NCBI GenBank assembly: GCA_963609155.1
Contig: CAVDHS010000040.1
Location: 2,768-35,586 of the forward strand
Direction: 5' to 3'
Length of the DNA: 32,819 bases
From: Bulleidia sp.
Lineage (GTDB): Bacteria > Patescibacteriota > Saccharimonadia > Saccharimonadales > Saccharimonadaceae
Every line of letters begins with the position of its first letter. Position 1 is the stretch's first letter. The notes below the pieces were generated by a model. That model worked only from the letters and a program-made list of their open reading frames with translations, searched no databases and was not told the origin of the DNA. Position numbers and translations under genes: made by a program. Shown piece by piece: positions 1,150-19,285 of the stretch.

Positions 1150-2781
1150 TTAGTCAATTTGGAGAGCTTGAATTTTGCGAAGCAGGTCGTCGTAGTTTTC
1201 GTCATCTTCATCGAGTTCGGCGAGTTTGGCGGAGAGAGTGCGAATCTGATGTTGTTTTGATTCTTTTTTATAACGCGCGAGCAATTCTCTCGCTTCTTGT
1301 TCGAGATCAGTATCGGAAATTTCGTGTTCGCGATTAAAAATCAATTCGAGTTCGGCCAAACGCGTTTCATCATCAGGAACAGCGAGCGGAATTTTAGTTT
1401 CAGTAATGCCTCCGAAAATTTTAAGCGCTAGTAAACTATTTTCGAGTGCAAGAAGTTTATCGTTTTTGGAAGCTTCAGTTTTCGGTTTTTTCAAGAAACG
1501 CTTCGGTTTTTCAGCAAGTTTTTGATTTAATCGCTCGCCTTTTTCACGCAAAACTTCCGTTTCAACGCCTAGTTTTTTCGCAACTTTCTTTTCATAGCTG
1601 GCACGCTCGACCTCGTCTTTGATATAACTCAGCAATTTCAGAGCGATGTCAGAATATTTACGTTTATCGGGCGCGGAATTTAGGTTTAAGTTTTCTTCGT
1701 ATTTTTTAAGCAGCCAGTCGACGGCGGGAACTTTGTGTTCGACAGCTTGTTGCCAAAGTTCGGGATCTTTTTGAATTAATTCATCGGGGTCTTTAGCGCC
1801 GTGATAATCAGAAATTACCGTAAGATCGATACCGAGATCGCCAGCCATCATAATCGCTCGCTCGGTCGCACGAATACCCGCAGCATCGCCATCATAAGCG
1901 AGACGGATGTCGGAAGTTAATCGGCTTAGAGCTTTTAGATGATGCTCGGTCATAGCAGTGCCACTGGTTGCGACGGCTTCTTTGACGCCGGCTTGATGGG
2001 ACGAAATAACATCCATATTGCCTTCGACAATCACAACATAGCCGCTGTGGCGGATAGATTCTTTGGCTTGAAAAAGTCCGAAAATGAATTTTGATTTGTT
2101 GAATAATAGCGTTTCGGGTGTGTTTAAATATTTCGGTTCGGATTTATCGAGAACGCGAGCGGTGAAACCGATGACGTTGCCGGTGGTGTCGATAAACGGA
2201 ACTGTCATGCGATTGCGAAAAAGATCGCCTTTGAAACGATTGAGAAGTCCAGCAGTGTCGAGTTCTGCTTCAGAAAAACCGCGTTTTTTGAGAGCTGTGA
2301 CCATATCTTTGCCGTTTGGAGGAGCGAAACCGATTTTGAATTCTTCAACGGTTTTACGATTTAGGTTGCGATTATAAAAAACATATTCGCAAACTTTTTT
2401 ACTGTGCGAGAGACAAGCTTGATAAAAACGTGTTGCGAGAGCGAGAGCTTCGCGAGTGCGCACTTTCTTTTCGGCAACTTTTTGGTCGCCACCGTGATAT
2501 TTCGTAAGTTCAACACCAGCTTGAGCAGCAAGTTTTTCCAACGCTGTTTTAAAGTCAACACCTTCCACTTCCATGATGAAAGTGAAAATGTCGCCGCCTT
2601 TGTTCGCAGAAAAATCGTGCCAAATGCCTTTTTCGGGAGAAACCATGAAACTCGGAGTTTTATCAACGCCCCAAGGCGAACGGCCTTTCAGATTTCGGCC
2701 GGCGCGCTTCAATTCCACATATTGCCCGACAACATCCTCCACCGCAAGTCGGGATTTTATTTCCTCTTTTGCGTCTTGCAT
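1150..2781 (-). CDS. dnaG: DNA primase
   Basis: KTPSF N-terminal domain, FRNRMTVPF, GFTAR, PKYLNTPET, TOPRIM motifs VEGNMDV and YDGDAAG, KDPDELI. Confidence 0.97.
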   Translation of the reverse strand: MQDAKEEIKSRLAVEDVVGQYVELKRAGRNLKGRSPWGVDKTPSFMVSPEKGIWHDFSANKGGDIFTFIMEVEGVDFKTALEKLAAQAGVELTKYHGGDQKVAEKKVRTREALALATRFYQACLSHSKKVCEYVFYNRNLNRKTVEEFKIGFAPPNGKDMVTALKKRGFSEAELDTAGLLNRFKGDLFRNRMTVPFIDTTGNVIGFTARVLDKSEPKYLNTPETLLFNKSKFIFGLFQAKESIRHSGYVVIVEGNMDVISSHQAGVKEAVATSGTAMTEHHLKALSRLTSDIRLAYDGDAAGIRATERAIMMAGDLGIDLTVISDYHGAKDPDELIQKDPELWQQAVEHKVPAVDWLLKKYEENLNLNSAPDKRKYSDIALKLLSYIKDEVERASYEKKVAKKLGVETEVLREKGERLNQKLAEKPKRFLKKPKTEASKNDKLLALENSLLALKIFGGITETKIPLAVPDDETRLAELELIFNREHEISDTDLEQEARELLARYKKESKQHQIRTLSAKLAELDEDDENYDDLLRKIQALQID

Positions 2782-2799: not shown

Positions 2800-3456
2800 A
2801 TGGACGGGCAACAGTATCTGGACCAGATTTCGCAAACAAACCGACCGGTGAAGCAATCTGGTGGGGGGTTGAATAAAATTTTAACTTCGAAAATATTTAT
2901 TGTCGGGGCGATTGGATTGGTGTTGTTGATTTTGATTATTATTCTCGGATCGGTAATTGGGGGCGGGAAAAAAAGTGTGAAAGAATTGGGCTATGAGCTG
3001 ATTTTACATCTGGATAATACTTCGGCAGTAATAAAAGAATATCAGTCGAATGTAAAATCCTCGAGACTAAGAGCGAGTAGTGCGTCGCTTGATGGGGTGT
3101 TGTCGAACACACGAAGTCAAATCAATACCGTTTTAGTGGATGAATTAGCATTTAATGAGAAAAAAGATATAAGCAAAAGTGCCGAAGAAGAAGCGGCGGC
3201 GGTTGGTGAAGAATTGAAAAATGAATTGTTTGAGGCGAAAATTAATGGGGTTTTAGACCGGATTTATGCGCATAAGATGGCTTATGAAATTTCGTTGTTT
3301 TTAGCGGAAGAGGAACAAATACTTGAAAATACCAGCAACGAAAATTTGACAAATGCGATCAACACTTCACGCGAAAGTTTAACAAATCTATACGATAAAT
3401 TTAATGATTTTTCGGAAACGGATAATTCGCTCGGTACGCAAACTACTGCGCAATAA
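2800..3456 (+). CDS. Hypothetical protein with one TM helix and a helical C-terminal domain
   Basis: 218-aa ORF with hydrophobic segment IFIVGAIGLVLLILIIILGSVIG; leaderless-type promoter upstream. Confidence 0.8.
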   Translation: MDGQQYLDQISQTNRPVKQSGGGLNKILTSKIFIVGAIGLVLLILIIILGSVIGGGKKSVKELGYELILHLDNTSAVIKEYQSNVKSSRLRASSASLDGVLSNTRSQINTVLVDELAFNEKKDISKSAEEEAAAVGEELKNELFEAKINGVLDRIYAHKMAYEISLFLAEEEQILENTSNENLTNAINTSRESLTNLYDKFNDFSETDNSLGTQTTAQ

Positions 3457-7263: not shown

Positions 7264-7339
7264 GGCCCGGTAGCTCAATGGATAGAGCAATTCCGTCCTA
7301 AGGAAGAGGTTGTGCGTTCGACTCGCACCCGGGTCACCA
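7264..7339 (+). tRNA. tRNA-Arg (CCT), CCA encoded
   Basis: GGCCCGG/CCGGGTC acceptor, GCTC/GAGC D stem, TTCC-GT-CCT-AA-GGAA anticodon arm, GTGCG-TTCGACT-CGCAC T arm, ACCA end. Confidence 0.95.
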
Positions 7340-7371: not shown

Positions 7372-7466
7372 AAGCTTATACTATAAACGACAACATAGTC
7401 ATGTTGATCTGCATATTTTCGCCTAATCTATTTTTGCACCTCGCTTTTTCCATAAAATCTCACATA

Positions 7467-7497
7467 CAAAAAGCGTCCAGAAATTGTTCTGAACGCT
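7467..7497 (-). terminator. Intrinsic terminator of the hsd-RT operon
   Basis: Minus strand AGCGTTCAGAA-CAAT-TTCTGGACGCT then TTTTG, about 60 nt downstream of the RT stop. Confidence 0.7.
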
Positions 7498-7554
7498 GTT
7501 TGATCTTGGGATTATTATACTACAGATAATTAGTTTTAACAAGCATCCGTAGAA

Positions 7555-8904
7555 TTAATTATTCACATTCAATATTGTATCGATTTTTAGCCAGTTAAAC
7601 TCCTCTTCGCTTATTAATATTTTATTTTTTAATACATTAAATCTTCGGATTGATTGAACTTCGTGTCTAGTCATTTCGCCATACTCTTTAATAAATCTTT
7701 GCCACTGCGATTGAGATAGTGCCACTTTTAGCTCTTCCGTCATCCTTTCGTCGTAATCTAAATATAGATATTCACTCATCATGATATCAAATATAGCATC
7801 TTTTATCCCCGTCTCGACCCTTTCTAGCCCAAGATGAATGATGGTTTTAAATATATGACTTCCGTTTTTCAACATCTTGCCTCGATCCATGGAAACAAAA
7901 TCATTTATCAGCGTTTCGATTTTTTCTATTGGCTGTTCTTTCATTCGAGTTCCAGGAGTAAGTTTGTCTAATATATCCATACCTTTATACTTAAAATAAT
8001 TGGTGATATCCCCAAATACAAGGACTTTACTGACATTAATATCTAAACCAAGAAGCATAAGTCTATTCGACGCGTAGGAAACAATTTTTTCTTCGGTTCC
8101 TTTTGGCATGAGCAATACTTGGTCATCAGCGAATCTAAAATATTTTCCACCTATAGATTCAATATATTCTTTCATTGTGATGTCGTAAGGTTGTAAATAA
8201 AAATTTGCTAAAATTCTAGAGCAATCGCCAAAATATTCTTGTGGAATCCCCACCGATTGTGGCGAAAAAGAGTTAATTTTTCTATCCCAATTTCGCAAGA
8301 AAAACATCAGGCAATTTACTATTTCTTTCTTATCAATCGGCACTATGCTCCTAATATTATCCTCTAATAAATCTAGTCTAATTCTATTATAATAATTTGC
8401 GATATCTAAAGTCACAACAGATAGATTATTCTCTTCAGCAAACGGCAATAGCTCTTTAATTCTAGAATTAAATTCTCCAAATTGCTCAATGTAGGCATTT
8501 CTATTAAATGTATTCGAACAAGGCGAAGGATTTTCGGCGGCTATAATTTCATCAAACTTTTCTTTTTCTCTTTTTCTCATAGCGCAAGACATTTGCCATC
8601 CCCCATAAGTGTCTTCGACTCTATTTTTAGTTAAATACTCATCTATTTCTGAAATACAAAACGAATAAACAATATTGTCTTCTCTAGATAAAATTGGGAC
8701 GAATCTAAGCACACCTTTGCCCTTATCGCACGACAATAGTAACGATGGTGTTTTTGGAAAGTATGTATTATCTAATAATGTATTGAAAACTTTATCACGA
8801 AAAGTTTTTTTGTTTTCCACTTTATCAAAGTATAATTTTTTATCAATTTTACTCAAAAATTTGTCTGTGATCGATTTATTAAAGGCGTCTTGCGAAATAT
8901 TCAT
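7555..8904 (-). CDS. Reverse transcriptase, probably of the UG/Abi (defence-associated) class
   Basis: RT motifs K..GVLRFVPI, LDIANYYNRI, GIPQ...SRILANFYL, YFRFADD (8122-8133), LGLDINVSK. C-terminal helical extension; no retron VTG motif and no group II intron maturase/HNH domain seen. Confidence 0.9.
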   Translation of the reverse strand: MNISQDAFNKSITDKFLSKIDKKLYFDKVENKKTFRDKVFNTLLDNTYFPKTPSLLLSCDKGKGVLRFVPILSREDNIVYSFCISEIDEYLTKNRVEDTYGGWQMSCAMRKREKEKFDEIIAAENPSPCSNTFNRNAYIEQFGEFNSRIKELLPFAEENNLSVVTLDIANYYNRIRLDLLEDNIRSIVPIDKKEIVNCLMFFLRNWDRKINSFSPQSVGIPQEYFGDCSRILANFYLQPYDITMKEYIESIGGKYFRFADDQVLLMPKGTEEKIVSYASNRLMLLGLDINVSKVLVFGDITNYFKYKGMDILDKLTPGTRMKEQPIEKIETLINDFVSMDRGKMLKNGSHIFKTIIHLGLERVETGIKDAIFDIMMSEYLYLDYDERMTEELKVALSQSQWQRFIKEYGEMTRHEVQSIRRFNVLKNKILISEEEFNWLKIDTILNVNN

Positions 8905-8911
8905 TATTATT

Positions 8912-11900
8912 CTACTCAGCCATTTCTTTGCATTTCAGCTCGGCTTGTTTAACCACCGTTTCGACCGCTTTAAAACTTTTATTTGGCGGATAATTATACT
9001 TAATCAGAAGTCTCTTAATTTCCATACGCATGTGAGCCTGCGAATCACGTTTAATATCCCAGTCTACCGTCATATTATTATTTACTACTTCTACCAATTC
9101 TTTTGCGATTTGAACTAGGGTTTCATCTTTCATGAGTTCGCGAACTTCCGGATCATCGCCTAAAGCATCGAAAAAAGCCGTCTCTTCTGGAGATAAGTCA
9201 AAATCATTTGAATGAATTATTTCTTTATCAATGTCTTTTTTAAGATCAATCATTTGCTGCAGAATTTTTTCTATATCAGTAATAGCAGTGCGCTCATTAT
9301 ATAGCTCTGCAATCTTTTTGAATTTCTCGGAAAATTTTTGAGACATAACATAATTCGTTCTACCAATTTGTGCAATATAGGCCTTGAGCGCTTTTCTTAA
9401 GATCTCAACGGCAATATTTTTATTCTCCATATTTGCCAAGCGATTTAGCATCACATCGCTAAGTATGCTTAGTTCTTTACCATGTTTAACTTCGCCAATT
9501 TGCACAAGTTCATCATCTTGGATTGCCTGCTGCAGCATTTCCGCAACATCGCGATTAATTTCCAGAACATCTAGCTTCCCGCTATCTACAATTTTGTTAA
9601 TAAACGAGCGCACCGAAATGAAGAACATTGATTTCCATCTAGTATTAAAATCAATTGAACCGGTTGAAATTGAATAAAGATTTTTTACATCACGACTATG
9701 ACGCATGAATTGATTTTTAGATTCTTCATCTTTTAAAATGAAGTTTGCGGCAGAATTTATCAATTTATACTTACCAAGATTATCAAGTGAATTGTAATGT
9801 AAATAAGTAAAGCCGTAAAATATCTGATCTATTAATTCAAGTTTATCTTTCAAAACTTTTATAATTTGCTCAGTGTCGACAATTTTGCCTTGATCGCGTT
9901 TTGTATAGGTACTTAGCGCTTCGAGAAGCCATCTTTTAAGACCGATATAATCTACAATGAGGCCACCAGTTTTATCTTTATAAACACGGTTTGTACGAGC
10001 AATGGCTTGCATTAAATTATGCGCCTTCATCGGCTTGTCAATATACATCGTACCAAGACATGGAACATCGAACCCGGTCAGCCACATATCAACTACAATT
10101 ACAATCTTAAATTCTGACCCCGGATCTTTAAATAATTTTTCACGTTCCTTTTTCTCATACTTTCCACCAATAGCCATCGCCATCTCTTCAGTGTCTTGAT
10201 TACTCGGCGTCATAACCATATTAATTTTGTTTTTGTAATCAGGGCGAAGTTTAAGAATTTTCTGATACATTATAAACGCGCTCTTACGAGAATATGCCAC
10301 AATCATCGCTTTATTTGCAACTAAATCTTTTCGTGATTCGTAATGTTCAATAATATCTTTTACGATCATCTCGAGACGGTCTGGATCTTCGATAATCTGA
10401 GAAATCTTAGTCATAGCTTGTTTTGAACGATTAATTCTTTCTTCATCGGCTAGACCTTGATTTTCAATCGAATCATAATATTCGTCGATTTCTTGCAAAA
10501 TTCTATCATTCAAACCAATCTTCGCCATGCGTCCTTCATAAGTAATTGGCACAGTTGCACCATCATCGATAGATTGAGTCATGTCGTAAATGTCGATAAT
10601 ATCGCCAAAGACATTTGTAGTAGAATGATCCTTATTTTCTACAGGCGTACCAGTAAAACCAATATAAGTTGCGTTTGGGAAAGCATCGTGAAGATATTTG
10701 GCGGTGCCGTATTTTTCAACGACAATCATTTTCTCCATATCAAGTTTCGTTTTCGCGTCTATGCCATAGTGGCTACGATGCGCCTCGTCCGCCATCACGA
10801 TGATGTCTTTGCGGTTCGAGAGTAGCCCCGTGTTTTCTTCAAATTTTTGCAGCGTAGTAAAAACAATACCACCAGCAACTTTGCCATTCAGTCGTTCTAC
10901 TAGGTCCTCGCGGTTCTCGACGTGTTCTGGCTTCTGACGAAGATATTCTGAACATTTTGCAAATGTAGTAAAAAGCTGGTCGTCTAAATCATTGCGATCT
11001 GTCACTACAACGATTGTTGGGTTATTCAATTTCTTAATCATATTCGCAGCATAGAATACCATCGAGAAACTTTTGCCCGAGCCCTGCGTATGCCAGAAAA
11101 TACCGACGCGGCCATCAGTAGTTGCAAGCGTACGGTCAATTGCTTTTTTTACGCCATAATATTGGTGGTATGCTGGCGCAATTTTTGCATCGTCTTGAAA
11201 CAAAATAAAGTTGCCAATAAGGTCGAGTAAAGTTTCGCGACTAAGCATACCATTTAGCATTGGCTCCAAAGTGTTCAAATTTTCTACTTCATCATCGCTA
11301 CTAGTTTTTTTCCATTCAGAAAAACGTTCCCATTTGCTTGTAATCGTGCCGACGCGAGCCGAAGCACCGTCGGAGGCTATGAGAAGCTGATTGTAGTAAA
11401 AAAGGCTCGGAATATGCGTAGAAAGATAGCCACGAAGCTGTTTATATGCGTCATTAATCTCCACATCTTCGCGAGTCATACTCTTAAGTTCAAACACAAC
11501 TAACGGCAAGCCATTGATGAATAAAATTAAATCCGGACGTTTTTCGCTATGTTCAATAATCGTAAATTGATTAACGATTAAAAATTCATTGTTATCGACA
11601 TTTCGCCAATCGATAAGGTTTATCGTATGATATTCAACGCCGTGCTCGCCATAAACTGGAACCGAAACTCCAGCGTGAAGCATACGAGAGAACTCTTGAT
11701 TGTTTTTAATTACATTATTTTGGTCGAGATTTTTGACAATACGAATTGCTTCGTCAATAATTTCTTCTGTCGCCGCTGGATTAATTCTTGAGAGCGCACT
11801 TTTTAAATTCGGAGTCAACATCACGTCGTGATAATCGCGCTCGATTTCTTCGCCGGGGCAATAATCGTAGCCTTGCCTGCGCAAAATTTCTATAATCGCC

Positions 11901-11929
11901 CGCTCAAGTGCTTCTTCGTTGAAATTCAT
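8912..11929 (-). CDS. hsdR: Type I restriction endonuclease subunit R
   Basis: RPDLILFINGLPLVVFELK nuclease motif, WHTQGSGKS Walker A, DEAH, FTGTP, MWLTGFD, QAIARTNR. Confidence 0.97.
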   Translation of the reverse strand: MNFNEEALERAIIEILRRQGYDYCPGEEIERDYHDVMLTPNLKSALSRINPAATEEIIDEAIRIVKNLDQNNVIKNNQEFSRMLHAGVSVPVYGEHGVEYHTINLIDWRNVDNNEFLIVNQFTIIEHSEKRPDLILFINGLPLVVFELKSMTREDVEINDAYKQLRGYLSTHIPSLFYYNQLLIASDGASARVGTITSKWERFSEWKKTSSDDEVENLNTLEPMLNGMLSRETLLDLIGNFILFQDDAKIAPAYHQYYGVKKAIDRTLATTDGRVGIFWHTQGSGKSFSMVFYAANMIKKLNNPTIVVVTDRNDLDDQLFTTFAKCSEYLRQKPEHVENREDLVERLNGKVAGGIVFTTLQKFEENTGLLSNRKDIIVMADEAHRSHYGIDAKTKLDMEKMIVVEKYGTAKYLHDAFPNATYIGFTGTPVENKDHSTTNVFGDIIDIYDMTQSIDDGATVPITYEGRMAKIGLNDRILQEIDEYYDSIENQGLADEERINRSKQAMTKISQIIEDPDRLEMIVKDIIEHYESRKDLVANKAMIVAYSRKSAFIMYQKILKLRPDYKNKINMVMTPSNQDTEEMAMAIGGKYEKKEREKLFKDPGSEFKIVIVVDMWLTGFDVPCLGTMYIDKPMKAHNLMQAIARTNRVYKDKTGGLIVDYIGLKRWLLEALSTYTKRDQGKIVDTEQIIKVLKDKLELIDQIFYGFTYLHYNSLDNLGKYKLINSAANFILKDEESKNQFMRHSRDVKNLYSISTGSIDFNTRWKSMFFISVRSFINKIVDSGKLDVLEINRDVAEMLQQAIQDDELVQIGEVKHGKELSILSDVMLNRLANMENKNIAVEILRKALKAYIAQIGRTNYVMSQKFSEKFKKIAELYNERTAITDIEKILQQMIDLKKDIDKEIIHSNDFDLSPEETAFFDALGDDPEVRELMKDETLVQIAKELVEVVNNNMTVDWDIKRDSQAHMRMEIKRLLIKYNYPPNKSFKAVETVVKQAELKCKEMAE

Positions 11930-13272
11930 TTTTTGCCTTCCTCGTTTTTAATGTTTTCATAAATGGAAAAATCATATCCTAACCCCATCAATTCTTCTAA
12001 TTTCGCACCGTTAAGCTTGTCATAAATCTGCCTGTTATTATTTAAAATATTAAATACATCTCGTAGGTCATCTTGGGGAAAACGTTTAATATCTGTTTTA
12101 ATTATTTTTAAAAATGATTCTAGGCAATTATCAGCATCATCATAGCCATTAAAGATTGGAATTTTTGCAAACATTTTTTTGAATAGATCTATCAGATTTT
12201 CCGTGTCTAATTCTTGAACAAAATTATCCAAAATCCTGCAATATTCTTTACTCCCCACATCATCGAGTTTTTTTATCGATTCATTAATATTTGATTCGAA
12301 AATCGTCCAATATTTAATAAAATATTCTATATTTTTATAAATGGATGATTCGAGTAATTCAAAAATATCATGTTTTTTGCTTTTTATTTCATTTAACAGA
12401 TAGTGTCTTTTTAATAATATTTCATATAAGTACGTCAGCGCCAACCAATCCTCATCGAAAGAATCCGATTTTTCATCTTTAATATTATCAATCTCTATTT
12501 TTTCCCAATCAAAACAATTTTCTATTAATGAGTTTTTTCCGTTATTATTTATATAATCCAATAATGCACTCAATACTAAAAAATTTGCATACTGTTTTCT
12601 TTGAATTTCTTCGCTCCGCTTACCAATTATTAAAACAAGGCTGGCATTAAATACCCTTTTCAAGTTGTCATCAGTGAAATCAGTGAAGTATTTATTGAGT
12701 AACTTTTCGGCTTGCTTAATTTCTTTTTCAACCGTTTGCTTGCTAAAAATAAACATTGCTCCAGTATTCAATTTTGGATATATGTGTTCATTAATCTCTT
12801 TTTTAATTATCTCATATGGCTTTTTAAAAAATGCTCCAACTATCAAAATATCATTGTAAATTTTAGTTATAAACGCAAATACTAACTCCTCTTCTGGTAT
12901 ATAATCTTTTTCACCAAAAACAAATGGATGAGCACACATATCTCTTGTTTCTTTCAAATATTTTAAAAGACTAATCGTCGAGTCGCCTATAATTCGCTGT
13001 TCTTGGTATATTTCAAAGATTTTCTTTTCTATCTCAGAATATTTAGTATCGCTAGAGTTTTTGCCTTCTAGGATTTTTTCTATCTCTTTGATATTCTTGT
13101 CGAGGTCTATATAGCCCGATTCGTTCATGAGAATCATTTTTCCATATAAATCATTTACTACGAGATCATATAGTAACAAAATACACGCTTTGTAATTTTT
13201 TGCATAATAAGATTGTAAAATATATTCAAAATTGGCGCGGCTTTGTTTATTTTTAATTTTATAGAGATCCAT
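11926..13272 (-). CDS. Hypothetical protein with predicted N-terminal HEPN-like domain (RxxxxH)
   Basis: Very AT-rich 448-aa ORF between hsdS and hsdR (ATGA overlap with hsdR). First helix FEYILQSYYAKNYKACILLLY and RDMCAHP motif at 12928-12945. Confidence 0.7.
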   Translation of the reverse strand: MDLYKIKNKQSRANFEYILQSYYAKNYKACILLLYDLVVNDLYGKMILMNESGYIDLDKNIKEIEKILEGKNSSDTKYSEIEKKIFEIYQEQRIIGDSTISLLKYLKETRDMCAHPFVFGEKDYIPEEELVFAFITKIYNDILIVGAFFKKPYEIIKKEINEHIYPKLNTGAMFIFSKQTVEKEIKQAEKLLNKYFTDFTDDNLKRVFNASLVLIIGKRSEEIQRKQYANFLVLSALLDYINNNGKNSLIENCFDWEKIEIDNIKDEKSDSFDEDWLALTYLYEILLKRHYLLNEIKSKKHDIFELLESSIYKNIEYFIKYWTIFESNINESIKKLDDVGSKEYCRILDNFVQELDTENLIDLFKKMFAKIPIFNGYDDADNCLESFLKIIKTDIKRFPQDDLRDVFNILNNNRQIYDKLNGAKLEELMGLGYDFSIYENIKNEEGKK

Positions 13273-13274
13273 AA

Positions 13275-14456
13275 TTATGTCAAAACCTTTTCTAAAACAA
13301 TTTTGTCATTCATGAGTTTCGGAAGTAAAATGTCACGCAAAGAGGTTAGTCTGATGTTTTCGTCAATATTATTTTGCATTTTCTGAATTAGGGGTCTATT
13401 TGCAGATTCAAAGGTAAGCATTTTTTTATAATCTATTTCTGGAACATTATAGTCGCAAAAATCTTTCCAAGATAAAACCGGCATTTTTGTTCCACCCGCC
13501 CTTACGGTTGCATACTTAATAAAATGATTAGAAGACAAAAGCCCCAAAAGAAAGCAATACATATATTCTTCTTGTGGTCTCACATTGATAACTGTTCCAG
13601 CAAACCCACCATCAAATGGCGCGAAGCAACATTTTCCAAAATATGGACGAATAGCTCCGAACATAATATCTCCCTGTTTTAATTCCAAAATATTTGAATC
13701 AAAATTATTACCACATGACCATTCTGACAAGCATATATTGAATCTTGGCATTACGGATAGGTCAAGAATTTTTAAGTCTTTCCAATCATCTTTTTTGGCA
13801 AAACGCTTTGTATTTCTACAGACTAAATCTTGCAGCTTAATACTGTGCGAATCGATAATGTTATTATTCAAAAGTCTTGTTAGGTTTTCTTGCAAAACTT
13901 TTTGTAAAGTTAAGTTCTGTTGATTGTTGAGCTCGATTTTGTTGTCGAAGGCGGAGAGGATGCGGACAACTTTTTTCTGAATTTCTAGGTTGGGAAGATC
14001 TATGGTCTGATTACGTAAATCTGTTTTGTTAAATTTGGGAACTGCACTACTAGAAGTAATTGAATCTAGCAAGTGTCTCCCTTGCAGCGATTTAAAATAA
14101 TAATATAGGTATTTTTGAATACAAATTGATTCATTTGTAGTAACCATAACAACATTTGGCCCTAAAGTCATAGGTATATCTAATGTAGGACACTGAAAAA
14201 TTTCTCCAATTGTACCCACATTTGCAAGGATTAATTCTCCACCAAACAATTTTGTCTTTTCAAGAAAATCGTAGGCGTGCTTAGACACATAAACCGCTCC
14301 TTGCTGATTAAAATTCCTACTATAATCAACAAAACGAATTAACCTAGCAAAATCCTTCTTATTGTTGTACTGAACATTATCGCGCAATGTTTTAAAACTT
14401 CCATTAGCAACATAATCAGTTATAACACTGCAAATATCGAAAAGTTTATATTTCAT
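13275..14456 (-). CDS. hsdS: Type I restriction-modification specificity subunit S
   Basis: Two TRD-like halves, central conserved LPNLEIQKKVVRILSAFDNKIELNNQQNLTL, C-terminal LTSLRDILLPKLM. ATG at 14456 overlaps the hsdM end (alternative GTG at 14468). Confidence 0.93.
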   Translation of the reverse strand: MKYKLFDICSVITDYVANGSFKTLRDNVQYNNKKDFARLIRFVDYSRNFNQQGAVYVSKHAYDFLEKTKLFGGELILANVGTIGEIFQCPTLDIPMTLGPNVVMVTTNESICIQKYLYYYFKSLQGRHLLDSITSSSAVPKFNKTDLRNQTIDLPNLEIQKKVVRILSAFDNKIELNNQQNLTLQKVLQENLTRLLNNNIIDSHSIKLQDLVCRNTKRFAKKDDWKDLKILDLSVMPRFNICLSEWSCGNNFDSNILELKQGDIMFGAIRPYFGKCCFAPFDGGFAGTVINVRPQEEYMYCFLLGLLSSNHFIKYATVRAGGTKMPVLSWKDFCDYNVPEIDYKKMLTFESANRPLIQKMQNNIDENIRLTSLRDILLPKLMNDKIVLEKVLT

Positions 14457-15945
14457 ATCCAATCTCACTCAAAACTTGCTTAATTTCTTGGTCTAACTCG
14501 GCGGATTTTTGCATTTGTGCGGAAAGCTCGGCGGTGAGGGTCTTCATTTTTTCTTCGAAGGGGATTCCGTCTCCTTCTTCCTCTTTGATACCTACATAGC
14601 GACCTGGGGTCAAAACGTAATCATTGGCTTTAATTTCCTCTAGCGTGGCAGATTTACAAAAGCCAGCGACGTCTTCGTAATTTTCATCATTTTCGAAGGC
14701 GTGGTAAGTGTTGGCGATTTTCATGATGTCGTCTTCGGAGAGTTCGCGGAGCTTGCGGGTGACCATGGCGCCAAGTTCGTTGGCGTTGATAAAGAGCGTT
14801 CTGCCGCAAGTTTTTCTATTAGTATTACGATTTAGAATCCAGATTGAGCACGGCACTGCGACGGTGTAGAATAAATTCGTTGGCATCGATAAAATACAAT
14901 CGACAAGGTTAGCTTCGAGAAGTTTCTTTCTAATTTCGGCTTCTTGACCGCCAGCAGAAAGTGAGCCATTGGCAAGAATGATTGCGGCTTTGCCGGTGAC
15001 GGATAATTTTGAAACCATGTGCTCGATCCAAGCATAGTTCGCATTACCCTTTGGCGGAATACCGAATTTCCAGCGATAATCATTAGTAAGTTTTTCTTGG
15101 CCCCAATCGCTGAGATTGAAAGGTGGGTTTGCCATGACGAAATCGGCTTTTAGATTTTTATGTAAATCTTCAGTAAAAGTGTCCGCCGCAAATTTGCCAA
15201 GGTCGCCGTCGATCGAGCGGATGGCGAGATTCATCTTTGCTAATTTCCAAGTGGTTGGGTTTTTCTCTTGACCATAGATTGAAATATCGCGAGCGTTGCC
15301 TTGATGGCGTTGAATAAACTTCAGAGATTGCACAAACATTCCACCAGAGCCGCAGGCGGGATCATAGACACGGCCTTTGTATGGCTCGAGGATTTCGACC
15401 ATTGTACGGACGAGACATGCTGGAGTATAAAATTCGCCGCCTTTTTGGAGCTCATTTGACGCAAATTCACCGAGAAAATATTCATAAATTCGTCCGAGTA
15501 AATCTTTCTCGGTCGCCTCTTTCGTTCCGATTTTGATATTCGTGAATAAATCAATGATTTCACCAAGGTTTACATTACGATTGTCCGGGTCATTATAGAC
15601 TTTAAACAAAACGCCCTTCAAGGTTGGGTTTTCTTTTTCAATCGAGTCGAGGGCTTTGTCGAGAATTTCGCCAATATTATAATCTTTAGCGTGTTTAACG
15701 AGGTAGCTCCAGCGAGCATTTTCTGGGACAAAGAAAATATTGTCTTGAATATATGCGTCACGGTCTTCCTCAAACCCCAATCCTTCGGCTTTTAATTTCT
15801 CGTATTGTTCTTCGAAAGAGTCGGAAATATATTTAAGGAATATCAATCCGAGAATTAAAAATTTATAATTTGTTACCGAAATGCCACCACGCATTTTGTC
15901 GGCGGCCGCCCAAAGGGTCTTTTCTAGATCTTTAATATTACTCAT
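14446..15945 (-). CDS. hsdM: Type I restriction-modification m6A methyltransferase subunit M
   Basis: LWAAADKMRG, GGEFYTP, YDPACGSGGM (SAM binding), NPPF catalytic motif, YVLTPGRYVG. ATG at 15945 (alternative TTG at 15960). Confidence 0.97.
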   Translation of the reverse strand: MSNIKDLEKTLWAAADKMRGGISVTNYKFLILGLIFLKYISDSFEEQYEKLKAEGLGFEEDRDAYIQDNIFFVPENARWSYLVKHAKDYNIGEILDKALDSIEKENPTLKGVLFKVYNDPDNRNVNLGEIIDLFTNIKIGTKEATEKDLLGRIYEYFLGEFASNELQKGGEFYTPACLVRTMVEILEPYKGRVYDPACGSGGMFVQSLKFIQRHQGNARDISIYGQEKNPTTWKLAKMNLAIRSIDGDLGKFAADTFTEDLHKNLKADFVMANPPFNLSDWGQEKLTNDYRWKFGIPPKGNANYAWIEHMVSKLSVTGKAAIILANGSLSAGGQEAEIRKKLLEANLVDCILSMPTNLFYTVAVPCSIWILNRNTNRKTCGRTLFINANELGAMVTRKLRELSEDDIMKIANTYHAFENDENYEDVAGFCKSATLEEIKANDYVLTPGRYVGIKEEEGDGIPFEEKMKTLTAELSAQMQKSAELDQEIKQVLSEIGYEI

Positions 15946-16160
15946 AGTTGTAGGTTCCAATTACTCTTATGATTGTTTTTAAATAAAACCAGTTTTTACA
16001 AAAAGAATGCAGCCTTCTGGTGTGTCGGCTGGAACCTACAATTTTTCGCTTTACATCGCAAACAAACTATAAGACCGACGCCTTTAAGGCTGCAGTCTAG
16101 CTTGTTTGAGATATAAACTAAAAAATCTCAAATCAGCGATTTTAAAATTGTAAGTTCCAA
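15946..16160 (-). ncRNA. Candidate structured cis-regulatory leader / antisense RNA of the hsd operon
   Basis: 9-bp closing stem 16008-16016/16086-16094, inner stem 16019-16028/16075-16082, hairpin 16106-16131. The element at 16030-16045 is complementary to repeats at 16144-16159 and 15948-15959. Confidence 0.6.
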
Positions 16161-16164
16161 TTTA

Positions 16165-16173
16165 ATTATACCA
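16165..16173 (-). promoter_or_regulatory. Extended -10 promoter of the hsd operon
   Basis: TGGTATAAT on the minus strand; predicted start about 16158-16157. Confidence 0.65.
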
Positions 16174-16269
16174 TATTTGACAAATTTTTACCCGTCTTTG
16201 TCTCTATATTCTTTGAATTTAGATTAAAAAAATATCACCGGTTTGATTGATGATAATACTTTTAAAATC

Positions 16270-16298
16270 TTGTATTTTTCAGTTGTCTGTGTTATAAT
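16270..16298 (+). promoter_or_regulatory. Near-consensus sigma70 promoter with no credible downstream CDS
   Basis: TTGTAT (16270-16275), 17-bp spacer, TG-T-TATAAT (16293-16298). Confidence 0.65.
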
Positions 16299-16304
16299 GA
16301 GAAT

Positions 16305-16360
16305 ATATTCCGATGCGGGCGAATCAAACGGAGAGATACCAAAGATGGACCCGCTTTTTT
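16305..16360 (+). ncRNA. Candidate ~55-nt small RNA convergent with the NYN gene
   Basis: Follows the promoter above. GCGGG (16315-16319) pairs with CCCGC (16350-16354), then TTTTTT; internal ATC/GAT and GG/CC pairings. Confidence 0.45.
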
Positions 16361-16362
16361 GA

Positions 16363-16869
16363 TTACTTTTGGCGCTTCTTGTATGCGATTTTATTCTTTA
16401 TGCCGACATTATCTAAGAAATCAACATATTTTGGGGTGAAAATTCTGTATAGTGAAGATGTTGAGTGGCGGTTTGGCGATAGCAACTTGCAAAACCGATT
16501 TTTATTCACGAGATATTTAACCATTTTAAAATAATCGCCATCCCCAGACACCAGAATTACATTATCGAATTTTTCCCTATCCGCGATTTTGGACATAACC
16601 GAAAACACGATATCCGTATCTACGTTGCCTTTTTTCTTACCAATCATCGACTGGCTATGCTCTCGAAATACAAGTATAAAACCAGCTTCCTGAATTAATT
16701 CGTAAACGCTTTGATTGTCTTCATTTACTGCGCCAAGAAAATAGTACGCTTTTTCGACATCGTATTGCTCTTTGAGATAAACTCGAAATCTCTTTAAATC
16801 AACTTTCCAACCATGCGCATTGGTATTCATATAAAGATTTTGACCGTCAATGAAGGCTTGGTTATTCAT
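16363..16869 (-). CDS. NYN (LabA/DUF88, PIN-like) domain ribonuclease
   Basis: AFIDGQNL, KKGNVDTDI, ILVSGDGDY acidic motifs. Confidence 0.92.
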   Translation of the reverse strand: MNNQAFIDGQNLYMNTNAHGWKVDLKRFRVYLKEQYDVEKAYYFLGAVNEDNQSVYELIQEAGFILVFREHSQSMIGKKKGNVDTDIVFSVMSKIADREKFDNVILVSGDGDYFKMVKYLVNKNRFCKLLSPNRHSTSSLYRIFTPKYVDFLDNVGIKNKIAYKKRQK

Positions 16870-16992
16870 TCTTTTTATTTTACCATATTTATCTCGTGAA
16901 AAATGAAAAAACGGCTAGGTTTATGTCGTTTTCTCGCCGCATATTTGAATCCTAAAATAGAAAAGCTCATCCGAGCCCAAGAGCGGCGTTAA

Positions 16993-17097
16993 TATTCAAA
17001 TCATAACTCCCCTAGCAAGCATACTAACCCACATCAGCATGCTATAATAATAGAAAATGGTCACATAAAGCGTGGCAGACAGGAGCCAATAAAATGA
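16993..17097 (+). pseudogene. C-terminal remnant of a polymorphic toxin-like gene
   Basis: Start-less frame YSNHNSPSKHTNPHQHAIIIENGHIKRGRQEPIK* ending in an ATGA overlap with the next gene. The H-x5-H-x2-PHxH...RG..EP pattern recalls His-rich toxin tips. Confidence 0.5.
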
Positions 17098-17339
17098 GAA
17101 TAACAAAATTCACAGAATTAGTCAACAACGGCTTTGACGTAGAAATGCGTTACAATGGCAAAACTTATTGGGCCGCATGGTATGGCGACAATACGCAAGA
17201 AAAAGCTTTTTACGAAGCAGACACTAAAAATGCAATTATATTCACAAAAGCAGGAGAAATTCTAGATAAAGAATATGGTGGCTTCAAAATTCGCAATATG
17301 ATTGAATCGCTTGACGAAAATGAGGATATCGATTATTAG
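17094..17339 (+). CDS. Small acidic protein, possible orphan immunity protein
   Basis: 81 aa, AGGAG RBS, DVEMRYNGKTYW motif; coupled to the toxin-like remnant. Confidence 0.65.
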   Translation: MRITKFTELVNNGFDVEMRYNGKTYWAAWYGDNTQEKAFYEADTKNAIIFTKAGEILDKEYGGFKIRNMIESLDENEDIDY

Positions 17340-17440
17340 CAAATGAAGGCTTCCTGTCATCTGGGTTGCCAATGTTCTAGGATGTATTGCTTAGTTCTAG
17401 TGAGGTCGGGGAGTGCGCTTTTTCAACACTATATTAATAG

Positions 17441-19285
17441 TTATCTTCGGCCGGTGTTGGGGGCGAGGGGGATAGTAAAGGCAGGAGTCCAGTCCGTGGC
17501 GGAGTGGTCTGAGGCATCGGGCGTGGTTTCGGCTGAGAATTCTGTGCTTAGGTCGACCGAGGCGGATTCGCCGCGACGAGAGTCGGAAAGAGGGACGAGA
17601 GTCAAGGTATTTACGATAGAGCGGTCGAGGTCGGCGAGAGTAATTTCGGTGTCGGCGGTGACACCGAGAATGGCGTCGTTTAGAATAACCAGAGTTTTTG
17701 TGCCGTCGGTTTTGAAACTGACTTTCGAGGCGGTGTCCGAAACGATTTCGACGCTGGTAATGCTGAGGCTCGGCAAAGTATTGTCGTAGGTTTCGTCCGC
17801 GTATTCTTCTTCAACTTGTGGAAGGCTGTCAAAACGTTCGATAATGGCGTCGGTCGAGGCCTCGAGTTCAATTTCGTCGGTGGCAGAGACGACTGCGCCA
17901 CCAGTGGCCTCGGCGAGAGGTTGATAAGTTTCGAAATTGTATTCTGGAGTGAGAATGTAGAAATTGACTGGATCGATTTGTTGACTTAATTTTTTAACGT
18001 CATAGAAAGTGGTGCCGTCAAGATCGGGAGAGTGAAAACCGGCGTCGGTTAAAACGACGAGCGATTTAGTCGCGCCAAAACGCCAGTTGAGTTTTTTCAT
18101 TACTTGAAATGAGGCCGAAAGTAGGGATTCGGGATCGTCGCCGCCGCCTTCGATAGTGATAGCGTCAAGCCCAGCCGTAAAAGTCTCGAGCGTGCAAGTT
18201 TCAAAACTACATCTTTCAGCTGGCGCGTAGCCGTCGGCGATGTCGCGATAGTCATAAAGCGCAACTCGCCCGCCAGCGTTCAAAGTTTTTTCAGCAAGAC
18301 GCAAGGCTTCGTTGCGATATTTTGAAAATAGCCAAGACATTGAACCGGTGGAATCAATCAAAATTGCGGTGTCGTGGAGTGAAATATATTCATTCTTCAA
18401 ATCGAACGCTTCGGTGATTTTGTTGAAAATAAGTTTGGAGGCGTCTTCGTAAATGCCGTCGGTGGCGTAGGCGGTGTGACTGCTGATACTAAGATACGAG
18501 CTACAGAGAATATCGTATTTATTGCACCAAGTGCCGATTTTGCCGGCGTATCCCGATGAAACATAGGGATTGCGAGCGCCGAGCAGTCCGACGTAAGCGC
18601 GACAATCTGGCACATAAATGCGATATGCGGAAAGATTTTTGCCGCTACAGGCAGCGGGAAAACGTCCGGCGCCTTCGGGTAGATAGATTTTGGGGTCGCC
18701 GAAGAGCGCGGAGTAGATGACTTTGTCGGAATTGATTTTTGACAGAGCGGTAGGAATGACTAGAGCGCCTTGGGAATAGCCAGCGAAGACATATTTGGTG
18801 TTTTTGCAACTGCTAGTATTGACGGTTGAGACGAGTGAATTCACGCCAGCTTTGACGCTGTCGCCAAAAGCATAGGCGTCGCCACGACCGACGAAAGCGC
18901 CGATGGTGACGTCGAGATTTTCGACACCGACGCCGATGGCGGGATAGTCGAGGTCGTCGATTTCGTAGTTTAGGGTGCCGGTGTTTAATTTGGATTCCAT
19001 GGCGGTTTTGAAAGCGATATAGTGGTCGGTATTGTATCGTTCCCCGCCCGAGCCGCGGACGAAAATGATTTTTAAGTCGGGGCAACCTTCGGCGTGAGCG
19101 AGTTCGAACGGGCGAGAATTAGCAATGAGAATTCCGCCGGAGATAATTGCGGACGCAAGGATTAAGTGCCTGATTTTGATTTTGTGAGTGTGGGTTTGGT
19201 ATTTCAACCGAATTTTGTGCCAACATTTTTTTGCGACACTAGCTAGCGGTTGTGGGCGACTAACTCGTTTTGTTTGTGCAGTCAT
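17441..19285 (-). CDS. Exported cutinase-family esterase fused to a vWA domain
   Basis: Signal/TM ending AHA-E; CPDLKIIFVRGSG, GYSQGA nucleophile elbow, LFGDP, C..YDILC, H.AY. vWA motifs LIDSTGSM, GGDDPES, VVLTDA. C-terminal APNTG. AAGGAG RBS. Confidence 0.88.
   Translation of the reverse strand: MTAQTKRVSRPQPLASVAKKCWHKIRLKYQTHTHKIKIRHLILASAIISGGILIANSRPFELAHAEGCPDLKIIFVRGSGGERYNTDHYIAFKTAMESKLNTGTLNYEIDDLDYPAIGVGVENLDVTIGAFVGRGDAYAFGDSVKAGVNSLVSTVNTSSCKNTKYVFAGYSQGALVIPTALSKINSDKVIYSALFGDPKIYLPEGAGRFPAACSGKNLSAYRIYVPDCRAYVGLLGARNPYVSSGYAGKIGTWCNKYDILCSSYLSISSHTAYATDGIYEDASKLIFNKITEAFDLKNEYISLHDTAILIDSTGSMSWLFSKYRNEALRLAEKTLNAGGRVALYDYRDIADGYAPAERCSFETCTLETFTAGLDAITIEGGGDDPESLLSASFQVMKKLNWRFGATKSLVVLTDAGFHSPDLDGTTFYDVKKLSQQIDPVNFYILTPEYNFETYQPLAEATGGAVVSATDEIELEASTDAIIERFDSLPQVEEEYADETYDNTLPSLSITSVEIVSDTASKVSFKTDGTKTLVILNDAILGVTADTEITLADLDRSIVNTLTLVPLSDSRRGESASVDLSTEFSAETTPDASDHSATDWTPAFTIPLAPNTGRR

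Follow-up and report, generated by a model that had tools for sequence, protein, structure and literature searches.

In the passages of PMC4825925 that deal with phage P4 immunity, CI RNA lies between a pair of complementary segments, seqA and seqC, in an untranslated leader, and immunity involves premature termination of transcription. A leader with a comparable layout was found on the minus strand of a 32,819-nucleotide (nt) stretch of a Saccharibacteria genome (assembly GCA_963609155.1, contig CAVDHS010000040.1; this whole stretch is referred to as the window), 5' of a Type I restriction-modification (R-M) operon, where folding models predict a structured RNA of ~215 nt. As in P4, to the extent that these passages describe it, an element B (seqB in P4) lies in a structured leader RNA, with a complementary element A (seqA) upstream and an element C (seqC) downstream in the same transcript. 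The Saccharibacteria leader differs from P4 CI in its setting, a bacterial chromosome with defence-gene cargo where P4 has phage replication genes, and in its design: an intrinsic stem and U-run are built into the B domain, and pairing of A with B in cis is a state supported by covariation.

C4 RNA of phages P1 and P7, which takes part in the control of icd-ant, is a short structured RNA complementary to flanking sites, the downstream one of which overlaps a ribosome-binding site; C4 uses two loop segments and is processed by RNase P. Element C of the Saccharibacteria leader also overlaps a start region. Unlike C4, the leader has a single B segment with three partners, and it gave no match to an Rfam C4 family. 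The initial annotation had likened the leader to the P4 CI and P1 C4 RNAs and had pointed to the Rfam C4 families for a search. Membership in these families is not supported, since the leader matched none of the Rfam models at E <= 10 and its context is not that of a phage. A cmscan search of positions 15000-17500 at E <= 10 returned only three chance-level matches, all outside the leader, and a scan of the whole window at the Rfam gathering thresholds returned only one tRNA.

Like terminator/antiterminator attenuators and riboswitch platforms, the leader sets a GC-rich stem with a U-run against a helix that takes the 5' half of this stem. Unlike in such attenuators, the antiterminator would be closed by the very 5' end of the RNA, a putative start-site sequestor is added, and B would serve as terminator core, antiterminator strand and start-site sequestor at once. 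Another comparison is with hok mRNA of the hok/sok system, which has tac, fbi and metastable hairpins and whose 5' end engages in long-range pairings that choose between an inert and a translatable fold. Folding order matters in hok, the 5' end pairs with the 3' end, activation occurs by 3' processing, and the regulator is a separate RNA, Sok. The Saccharibacteria leader likewise has long-range alternative pairings that engage the predicted 5' end of the mRNA of a module that could be lethal; unlike in hok, all partners lie within the 215-nt leader, including the terminator, and the likeness considered here is one of architecture. In function, the leader would be closest to a terminator/antiterminator attenuator combined with a putative sequestor.

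R-M systems are controlled by C proteins, by methylase autorepression, by antisense RNAs from internal reverse promoters and by proteolysis. The leader would resemble these modes of control in tuning the expression of a toxic module, but they use DNA-binding proteins or RNAs from reverse promoters inside genes. For the EcoRI system, small antisense RNAs are described in the part of PMC3141266 that we consulted. A 2013 review of R-M regulation (PMC3874152) contains the word "riboswitch" 0 times and "attenuat", "leader" and "terminator" once each, and its passages seen here describe no leader attenuator for an R-M system. A description of such a leader was not found in the open-access literature with the search terms chosen. 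We rate the leader as a new RNA family with a design of one segment and three partners, and as a portable expression-control cassette for Saccharibacteria defence operons.

Two mutually exclusive folds of the leader

We consider it probable that the ~215-nt leader is a cis-acting three-state switch for the operon behind it. All of the parts lie at the coordinates given in the initial annotation: promoter, the three elements, closing stem, U-run and second pair (Table 1). The alternative pairings it had named are borne out, covariation across relatives is seen in the hairpin formed by A and B as well as in the closing stem and the second helix, and the layout of a switch-like leader acting at the RNA level, with A upstream, B in the terminated domain and C on the translation start, is supported. 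The promoter is of the extended -10 type (TRTGnTATAAT) without a -35 box and is missed by a simple consensus scan. This promoter stretch was found again in many genomes of the window's genus, and every homologous leader has TATAAT or TAAAAT 6-7 nt ahead of GGAA. The predicted transcript start is ~7 nt 3' of the -10 box, at the G of GGAAC, which would make element A the 5' end of the RNA.

Within the 32.8-kb window, the 12-nt core TGGAACYTACAA is present at three sites, while 100 shuffles give an expectation of 0.00. A repeat finder returned A and B as arms of 16 nt (94% complementary), B and C as arms of 12 nt (100%), the closing stem as arms of 13 nt (92%), and A and C as a direct repeat of 15 nt (93%). 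Besides A and C, B is complementary to an internal A-like stretch, making three partners in total. Folding of the 226-nt leader gave z = -5.71, and the 103-nt domain folds at -39.7 kcal/mol with z = -5.59; 0 of 200 shuffles folded as well in either case.

For the fold based on A and B, 34 unique A..B segments were folded singly. The same architecture appears in 17/17 inspected folds, consisting of a basal A:B helix, a bulge on the 5' side, an extension helix and a three-way junction. A variable hairpin belongs to this junction, and the long hairpin continues with the second helix and, at its apex, with pairing of the 5' half of the terminator stem. Per-sequence folds of the relatives place a hairpin at the side-hairpin position as well, although of quite different sequence; in the window's own minimum free energy (MFE) fold, the side hairpin gives way to a longer pairing. 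In an unfitted MAFFT alignment of the 34 sequences, 89.3% of the cells are paired versus at most 51.2% in slid controls, and 14 of the 49 pairs are changed on both sides, a number reached by 0 of 500 shuffles. The alignment fitted to model R2, which leans towards that structure because it was fitted to it, has 94.4% paired cells (best slid control 46.5%), 28 of the 49 pairs changed on both sides and a covariation score of 0.266 (slid controls at most 0.055). Double changes in this fitted alignment are spread over 5/14 and 10/11 pairs of helices 1 and 2 (A:B and its extension), 5/5 pairs of helices 3 and 4 (side hairpin) and 6/9 pairs of helix 5 (second helix), which is 99.7% paired. Compensation can be followed in single sequences: the second helix is GCAAAAACU/AGUUUUUGC in some relatives and GCAGAAACU/AGUUUCUGC in others; the extension, UCGCU/AGCGA in the window, becomes UCGCGUUUUAG/CUAAAACGCGA, CACAUUUGA/UCAAAUGUG or CGCGACGAAG/CUUUGUCGCG; and in the core of locus L157, UCUGCAU/AUGCAGA replaces UUACAAUU/AAUUGUAG.

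The second fold is the terminator domain, which RNAalifold returned as the consensus structure. Its closing stem is supported by covariation, with 100% of cells paired and 8 of 9 pairs compensatory among 25 distinct sequences aligned to covariance model R1. A U-run follows the closing stem in all relatives, and the whole domain is identical in the window, L109 and L110 despite differing flanks. Closing stem and U-run look like an intrinsic terminator, one that a simple terminator scan misses because the enclosed loop is longer than 8 nt, and termination would be expected at the U-run. The two folds are mutually exclusive, and covariation is shown for each by comparison of related sequences. 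The leader thus has the parts of an attenuator, a GC-rich stem directly before a U-run and an exclusive antiterminator that uses part of the terminator. In the initial annotation, it was the second pair that competed with the closing stem. The second pair does not overlap the stem directly, yet competition stands for the long hairpin to which this pair belongs, since the apical part of that hairpin consumes the 5' half of the stem. A further hairpin, named D, between the terminator 3' half with the U-run and a downstream copy of the 5' half, stands out in many relatives, 17 of 30 distinct segments having z = -2.4 to -3.8; the window itself lacks it (-1.3 kcal/mol, z = +1.0), and it is therefore not counted as part of the leader.

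In the long hairpin, 175 G.U cells stand against 22 A.C cells, and in the terminator domain 137 against 5, an excess which indicates that the pairing is read in RNA of this strand, not in DNA or in the opposite strand. These counts bear on an alternative at the DNA level, in which the repeats are operators for a DNA-binding regulator or recombination sites, such that A and B delimit an invertible segment or A and C are a target duplication left by a small mobile insertion. Three copies of the 12-nt core in direct-inverted-direct order within 215 bp, the 15-nt direct repeat A/C flanking the element, and close hsdM relatives without the whole insert would suit such sites. We regard them as very improbable nonetheless. 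The helices outside the core covary, orientation is uniform in all 34 unique leaders, and these two observations together with the G.U excess contradict all three kinds of site, among them the protein operators by which the initial annotation would have been refuted. In addition, A and C are kept over two genera without the decay of a target duplication, and in L157 and L158 A has changed along with B, not with C.

Table 1. Features of the leader and of the operon behind it; positions refer to the window
Feature	Position	Strand	Sequence, partner or basis
Extended -10 promoter	16173-16165	-	TGGTATAAT, within TATGGTATAAT; from sequence
Element A	16160-16135	-	core UGGAACUUACAAUUUU (16159-16144) pairs with B
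Extension of element A	16139-16135	-	UCGCU, beyond a 4-nt bulge; pairs with AGCGA of B
Variable side hairpin	16104..16134	-	GAUUUGAGAU...AUCUCAAAC; inverted repeat I6
Second helix, 5' strand	16108-16098	-	CAAACAAGCUA; partner 16069-16059
Terminator domain, 87 nt	16094-16008	-	closing stem of 9 bp, UGCAGCCUU (16094-16086) / AAGGCUGCA (16016-16008)
Small hairpin in terminator domain	16090-16080	-	GCCU-UAA-AGGC
Inner helix of terminator domain	16079-16075 / 16028-16024	-	GUCGG / CCGAC
Internal A-like stretch	16073-16064	-	CUUAUAGUUU; complementary to B
Element B, inside terminator domain	16050-16030	-	AGCGA-AAAAUUGUAGGUUCCA
U-run, directly 3' of closing stem	16007-16000	-	UUCUUUUU (also written TTCTTTTT)
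Shine-Dalgarno-like AAGAG	15968-15964	-	start region 15943..15968
Element C	15960-15948	-	UUGGAACCUACAA; ends 3 nt ahead of hsdM ATG (15945-15943)
Operon behind the leader, tightly packed	7555..15960	-	open reading frames, Pfam, PADLOC
hsdM	15960/15945-14446	-	
hsdS	14468-13275	-	
448-amino-acid PD-T7-3-like protein	13272-11926	-	PADLOC, E = 1.4e-23; no Pfam domain
hsdR	11929-8912	-	
Reverse transcriptase, class UG13b	8904-7555	-	PADLOC, E = 9.4e-95

Energetics, start region and the proposed switch

MFE states were compared for RNAs ending at the U-run in 35 leaders and for full-leader folds in ten. When the RNA ends at the U-run, the MFE fold is the long hairpin in 31/35 leaders, the terminator in 3/35 and another fold in 1/35. 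Long hairpin and terminator differ by 0.1-3.2 kcal/mol in most leaders of a second Saccharibacteria genus described below, with a single leader going as high as 6.3; for the window the difference amounts to 7.4 kcal/mol. Forcing the first 14 nt (A) to be unpaired makes the terminator the MFE fold in 30/35 leaders, the window among them. In full leaders the three states lie close together; the full leader of the window reaches -64.1 kcal/mol in the A:B state, -61.1 in the B:C state and -57.5 in the terminator state, and the B:C state is the MFE fold in 4 of the 10 full leaders folded. The B:C state leaves the remainder of the long hairpin intact and differs only in that B has C in place of A as its basal partner.

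The B:C duplex of the window has an energy of -19.0 kcal/mol, compared with -6.1 +/- 2.2 for shuffled C, and values of -18 to -26 kcal/mol were obtained for 24 of the 26 distinct variants with a C (shuffled C: about -6 to -8 +/- 2-3). The UUG of C (15960-15958) is in frame with the hsdM AUG, and the corresponding UUG is in frame with an ATG or GTG of the cargo in nearly all leaders that have a C. Variants of this arrangement include ATG in place of TTG (L159), a version that is 3 nt shorter and still in frame (L156) and a TAATG stop-start overlap (L154); the downstream start is GTG in 5 of the 24 unique leaders of alignment A1. Which start is used is ambiguous in the window, as the UUG at 15960 lies only 3 nt after AAGAG and the AUG at 15945 has no good Shine-Dalgarno sequence. 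Element C covers the initiation region in either case. B:C is thus a conserved complementarity over the start, and it could act by sequestration.

Under the three-state switch, the operon would be on by default. During synthesis, the 3' strand of the long hairpin would zip onto its 5' strand to give a long branched hairpin based on the A:B helix, and this hairpin would probably form first, as its 3' strand emerges ahead of the 3' half of the terminator. Because it uses up the 5' half of the terminator stem, the hairpin would act as an antiterminator, and because it holds B off C it would act as an anti-sequestor. Polymerase would then read through, and the start region with the Shine-Dalgarno-like AAGAG and the UUG or AUG would be free. 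In a first off state, with A unavailable, B would fold onto the internal A-like stretch, and the closing stem with the U-run would form the terminator. In a second off state, RNAs that have been read through would have B paired with C over the start codon region. Some factor that masks or removes A could hand B to the internal partner or to C. The likely role of such a switch is to set or feed back on the expression of toxic R-M and defence operons; in the window, the cassette sits on a horizontally acquired Type I operon.

Several points weigh against this reading, besides the lean of the fitted alignment noted above. We infer the transcript start, termination at the U-run and the switching itself. 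No RNA sequencing run was found to contain the stretch, and three RNA runs of the same label, in which the presence of the organism was not shown, gave 0 reads. The leader sequences represent about six lineages, so the cell counts overstate the number of independent events, and the two inner helices of the terminator domain show one-sided changes only, with no double changes. For B:C, 98.8% of the cells are paired, 12 of the 14 pairs never vary and none is compensatory, which leaves covariation silent on this pairing; in L157 and L158, B tracks A by compensation and keeps only 7 contiguous pairs with C (-12.8 and -14.4 kcal/mol). The long hairpin is favoured by 7-9 kcal/mol in the window's clade, and the terminator may therefore seldom form there without a factor. 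None of the triggers looked for, namely an aptamer, a leader peptide, a T-box and a known protein-binding motif, was detected. The Rfam cmscan gave no riboswitch or T-box match in the leader, and a conserved leader open reading frame (ORF) was not found by reading, the codon at the 5' A being TTG or GTG in some leaders and CGG, GCG or ACG in others. CsrA and Hfq were rejected as effectors, since neither was found in the 4/4 leader-bearing genomes tested.

That no trigger was found would also fit a constitutive cassette without switching. In such a cassette, the hairpin would stabilize or insulate the mRNA, attenuation would be partial and fixed, the block over the start would be an initiation module, and A and C would resemble each other as a side effect of the cassette's origin. 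In its favour, the predicted RNA is closed at its very 5' end by the long hairpin, the MFE fold of most leaders as given above, and many cargos are joined to the cassette in frame. With at least 8 of 24 window genes apparently leaderless (see below), imported genes could profit from a start module supplied ready-made. We nevertheless find this explanation rather unlikely, because each of two exclusive folds carries compensatory changes and because the folds are nearly isoenergetic in most members, which is not expected of a passive stabilizer. Moreover, B is strongly complementary to three partners, and A and C remain alike across both genera despite an overall identity of 72-79%.

Distribution and cargo of the cassette

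When 400 other genomes of the family were searched at the DNA level, the leader turned up in ten, which belong to two of 95 genera. Three are in the window's genus (88-90% identity) and seven in the second genus (72-79%). Within the second genus, covariance model R1, which describes the terminator domain, detected the leader in 21 of 59 genomes; an R1 scan of 150 genomes across the order returned no leader besides the window's own. An exact 22-mer from the start block led to 17 metagenome contigs, a set that is biased to leaders with canonical C because it was drawn with this one 22-mer, and contigs of one DNA sequencing run showed a leader variant. Only promoter-sized matches were obtained in a DNA search of 60 relatives. 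The leader was absent from viral contigs (0 matches) and plasmids (0 matches), and one 43-nt match in a phage collection (E = 5e-3, two records) was taken as chance.

Nearly all leaders share one layout: a -10 box, a spacer of 6-7 nt, GGAAC... (A), a variable hairpin, the terminator domain with B, the U-run, a spacer, the block CATAAGAGTAATTGGAACCTAC and a start codon. The block CATAAGAGTAATTGGAACCTAC is identical in both genera. Element C is absent in three lineages (L117/L150, L151 and L152). The core of B is invariant over the 34 unique leaders except for compensated changes in the L118 and L157/L158 lineages.

This module of promoter, leader and start is fused in frame to different R-M and defence genes in the two genera. 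Cargo genes include Type I hsdM, two kinds of N6_N4_Mtase, a small MmeI-like methylase and DEAD/ResIII helicases. In the two most divergent loci, L157 and L158, A and B have changed together and C is altered; the start at C opens a 20-codon ORF that is followed by a Bac_transf sugar transferase, not a defence gene. One genome carries the leader twice at locus L172 (G259:C3:73600-82000), the copies being identical in A..B and separated by 3.5 kb. Behind the first comes a 1079-amino-acid DEAD/Helicase_C/ResIII protein, and behind the second a methylase-like ORF of 219 amino acids, an Eco57I-type methylase of 509 amino acids and a T5orf172/ResIII protein. Genes upstream of the leaders are mutually unrelated and include RuvB, pyrophosphatase, QueH, GNAT, PemK and others. 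By sequence comparison, the leader is a conserved, portable cassette in two Saccharibacteria genera. The initial annotation had proposed a switch for a Type I R-M/HEPN/reverse transcriptase operon; the switch-like leader is upheld, but it is not private to that operon and sits on several kinds of defence gene.

Collection of leaders through hsdM itself yielded little. From 80 hsdM-relative loci fetched, the upstream DNA of 24 was read, and only the 2 closest (95% and 94% identical) carry the leader; conservation and covariation come instead from the relatives of the leader. In the other hsdM relatives read, from Saccharibacteria (76-87%) and Firmicutes (72-77%), the promoter lies ~45 nt from the start and is accompanied by a normal GGAG Shine-Dalgarno sequence. 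It follows that the leader does not belong to the imported R-M operon.

The distribution also bears on a suggestion of the initial annotation that the leader is the cognate non-coding RNA, a template or scaffold, of the reverse transcriptase at the operon end. Several defence reverse transcriptases use a neighbouring non-coding RNA, and the UG13b enzyme is encoded in the same operon (Table 1), at a distance of 7 kb from the leader. The closest relative, L028, whose HsdM is 95% identical, has the leader followed by hsdM-hsdS-hsdR with a different middle gene and no reverse transcriptase, and leaders of the second genus precede unrelated genes for methylases or helicases with no reverse transcriptase among the ORFs examined. 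Since the leader occurs without the enzyme, this reading fails, and we give it almost no credence.

Some leader units and neighbouring elements depart from the common layout. At L152 (1021-1434, minus strand), a unit without C is followed by a 138-amino-acid ORF with a CdiA_C domain (contact-dependent inhibition toxin C-terminal domain). At L150 (G209:C2) and L151 (G600:C38), a second promoter comes after an A-B-terminator unit that has no C, and with it a different long-hairpin leader, the 5' end of which pairs with a distant segment. The second leader of L150 has a terminator, and a copy of its 5' motif, ACAACAGAG, abuts the ATG of another DNA methylase. With the same architecture and other sequences, these second leaders may form a sister family. 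L168 and L170 (G600:C65 and G209:C4) have a conserved GC-rich stretch with the 10-mer TGGAACCTAC ahead of an ATG, which resembles structured RNA and is unrelated to the leader.

Another possibility is that the leader is a self-contained gene for a small RNA that acts in trans by the logic of P4 CI and P1 C4. Most transcripts would stop at the terminator. A stable B-RNA, perhaps with A removed, would pair with A and C of nascent leaders of the same address, causing termination and blocking the start, and would provide immunity or a negative feedback that depends on copy number. P4 has this layout, with CI flanked by complementary seqA and seqC in the passages of PMC4825925 on P4. Units of promoter, A, B and terminator without an adjacent C occur in L117/L150, L151 and L152, and the L172 genome has its two copies with identical A..B before helicase and methylase genes. 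UUCCA of B is unpaired in the terminator fold and could seed pairing, and blocking A in silico is what flips 30/35 leaders to the terminator. A sister leader of the same architecture with other A, B and C ahead of another methylase is as expected for orthogonal addresses. On the other hand, B is base-paired in both folds supported by covariation, and no C4-type match exists in Rfam. The three genomes with orphan units have no extra C-like start sites; the exact 10-mer of C is met at four further places, which lie in genes or unrelated DNA and never at a start codon, at about the chance rate. Hfq was not found in the 4/4 genomes, though long antisense pairing need not require it. Overall, we hold action in trans to be possible but unlikely.

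If this less likely explanation were true, R-M modules would have in the leader a self-addressed device for feedback or immunity that is made of RNA only, and we put it forward tentatively in this form. Sites A and C would be hit in trans by the stable B-RNA, and transcription and translation of operons with the same address would be shut off as copies accumulate. Diversified A/B/C addresses, such as the L157/L158 variants and the sister leader of L150, would define orthogonal groups. A new defence operon would get a burst of expression and then a clamp without any protein regulator. Such control would operate in bacteria without Hfq and CsrA that otherwise tend towards leaderless mRNAs.

Operon surroundings and significance for Saccharibacteria

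The source genome of the window is 629 kb in size and 94.5% complete. The operon carries, between hsdS and hsdR, a gene for a 448-amino-acid protein that had been labelled HEPN in the initial annotation; this label was not confirmed, as the protein has no Pfam or NCBIfam match and is PD-T7-3-like according to PADLOC. The apparent operon end is a stem with a U-run, AGCGUUCAGAA...UUCUGGACGCUUUUU, ~60 nt after the reverse transcriptase stop (7440-7555, minus strand). A tRNA gene (7264-7336, plus strand, 57.2 bits) lies just past this end, and the block of R-M and reverse transcriptase genes may be an island beside the tRNA gene. In L028 the reverse transcriptase is missing and a 212-amino-acid ORF of no known family (9576-10214) takes the place of the 448-amino-acid gene. 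These differences within an operon that is 95% related point to a Type I operon with swappable inserts. A cutinase/VWA gene sits upstream of the NYN gene in the window (17441-19285) and downstream of hsdR in L028 (13359-15155), which indicates rearrangement around the island.

The NYN-domain gene, which is ribonuclease-like, lies upstream of the leader. It was rejected as a conserved partner of the leader, being kept only in the window's own clade, with unrelated upstream genes elsewhere. Between the NYN stop and the leader promoter (16315-16360), the plus strand reads GCGGG, 30 nt, CCCGC and TTTTTT. This stretch is terminator-like, antisense to the operon, and near-identical in L109-L111 despite differing neighbouring DNA.

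At least 8 of the 24 larger ORFs of the window have a TATAAT-like box that ends 6-8 nt ahead of the ATG, with starts for example at 2781/2800, 7240, 16869, 26091, 26148, 27608 and 27645. The divergent genes at 1150-2781 (minus strand) and 2800-3456 (plus strand) are separated by an 18-nt spacer with a -10 box for each strand. The position of the TATAAT-like boxes suggests that the ORFs behind them have leaderless mRNAs, and a leader of 215 nt would thus be exceptional in the window.

A terminator/antiterminator leader supported by covariation and placed on Type I, Type III-like and other defence genes would add RNA-based control to the known regulation of R-M systems. Being compact, portable and balanced near the switching point, the leader can be tested in vitro and is potentially useful as a part. 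It would rank among the few regulatory RNAs described for the ultra-small bacteria of the Candidate Phyla Radiation.

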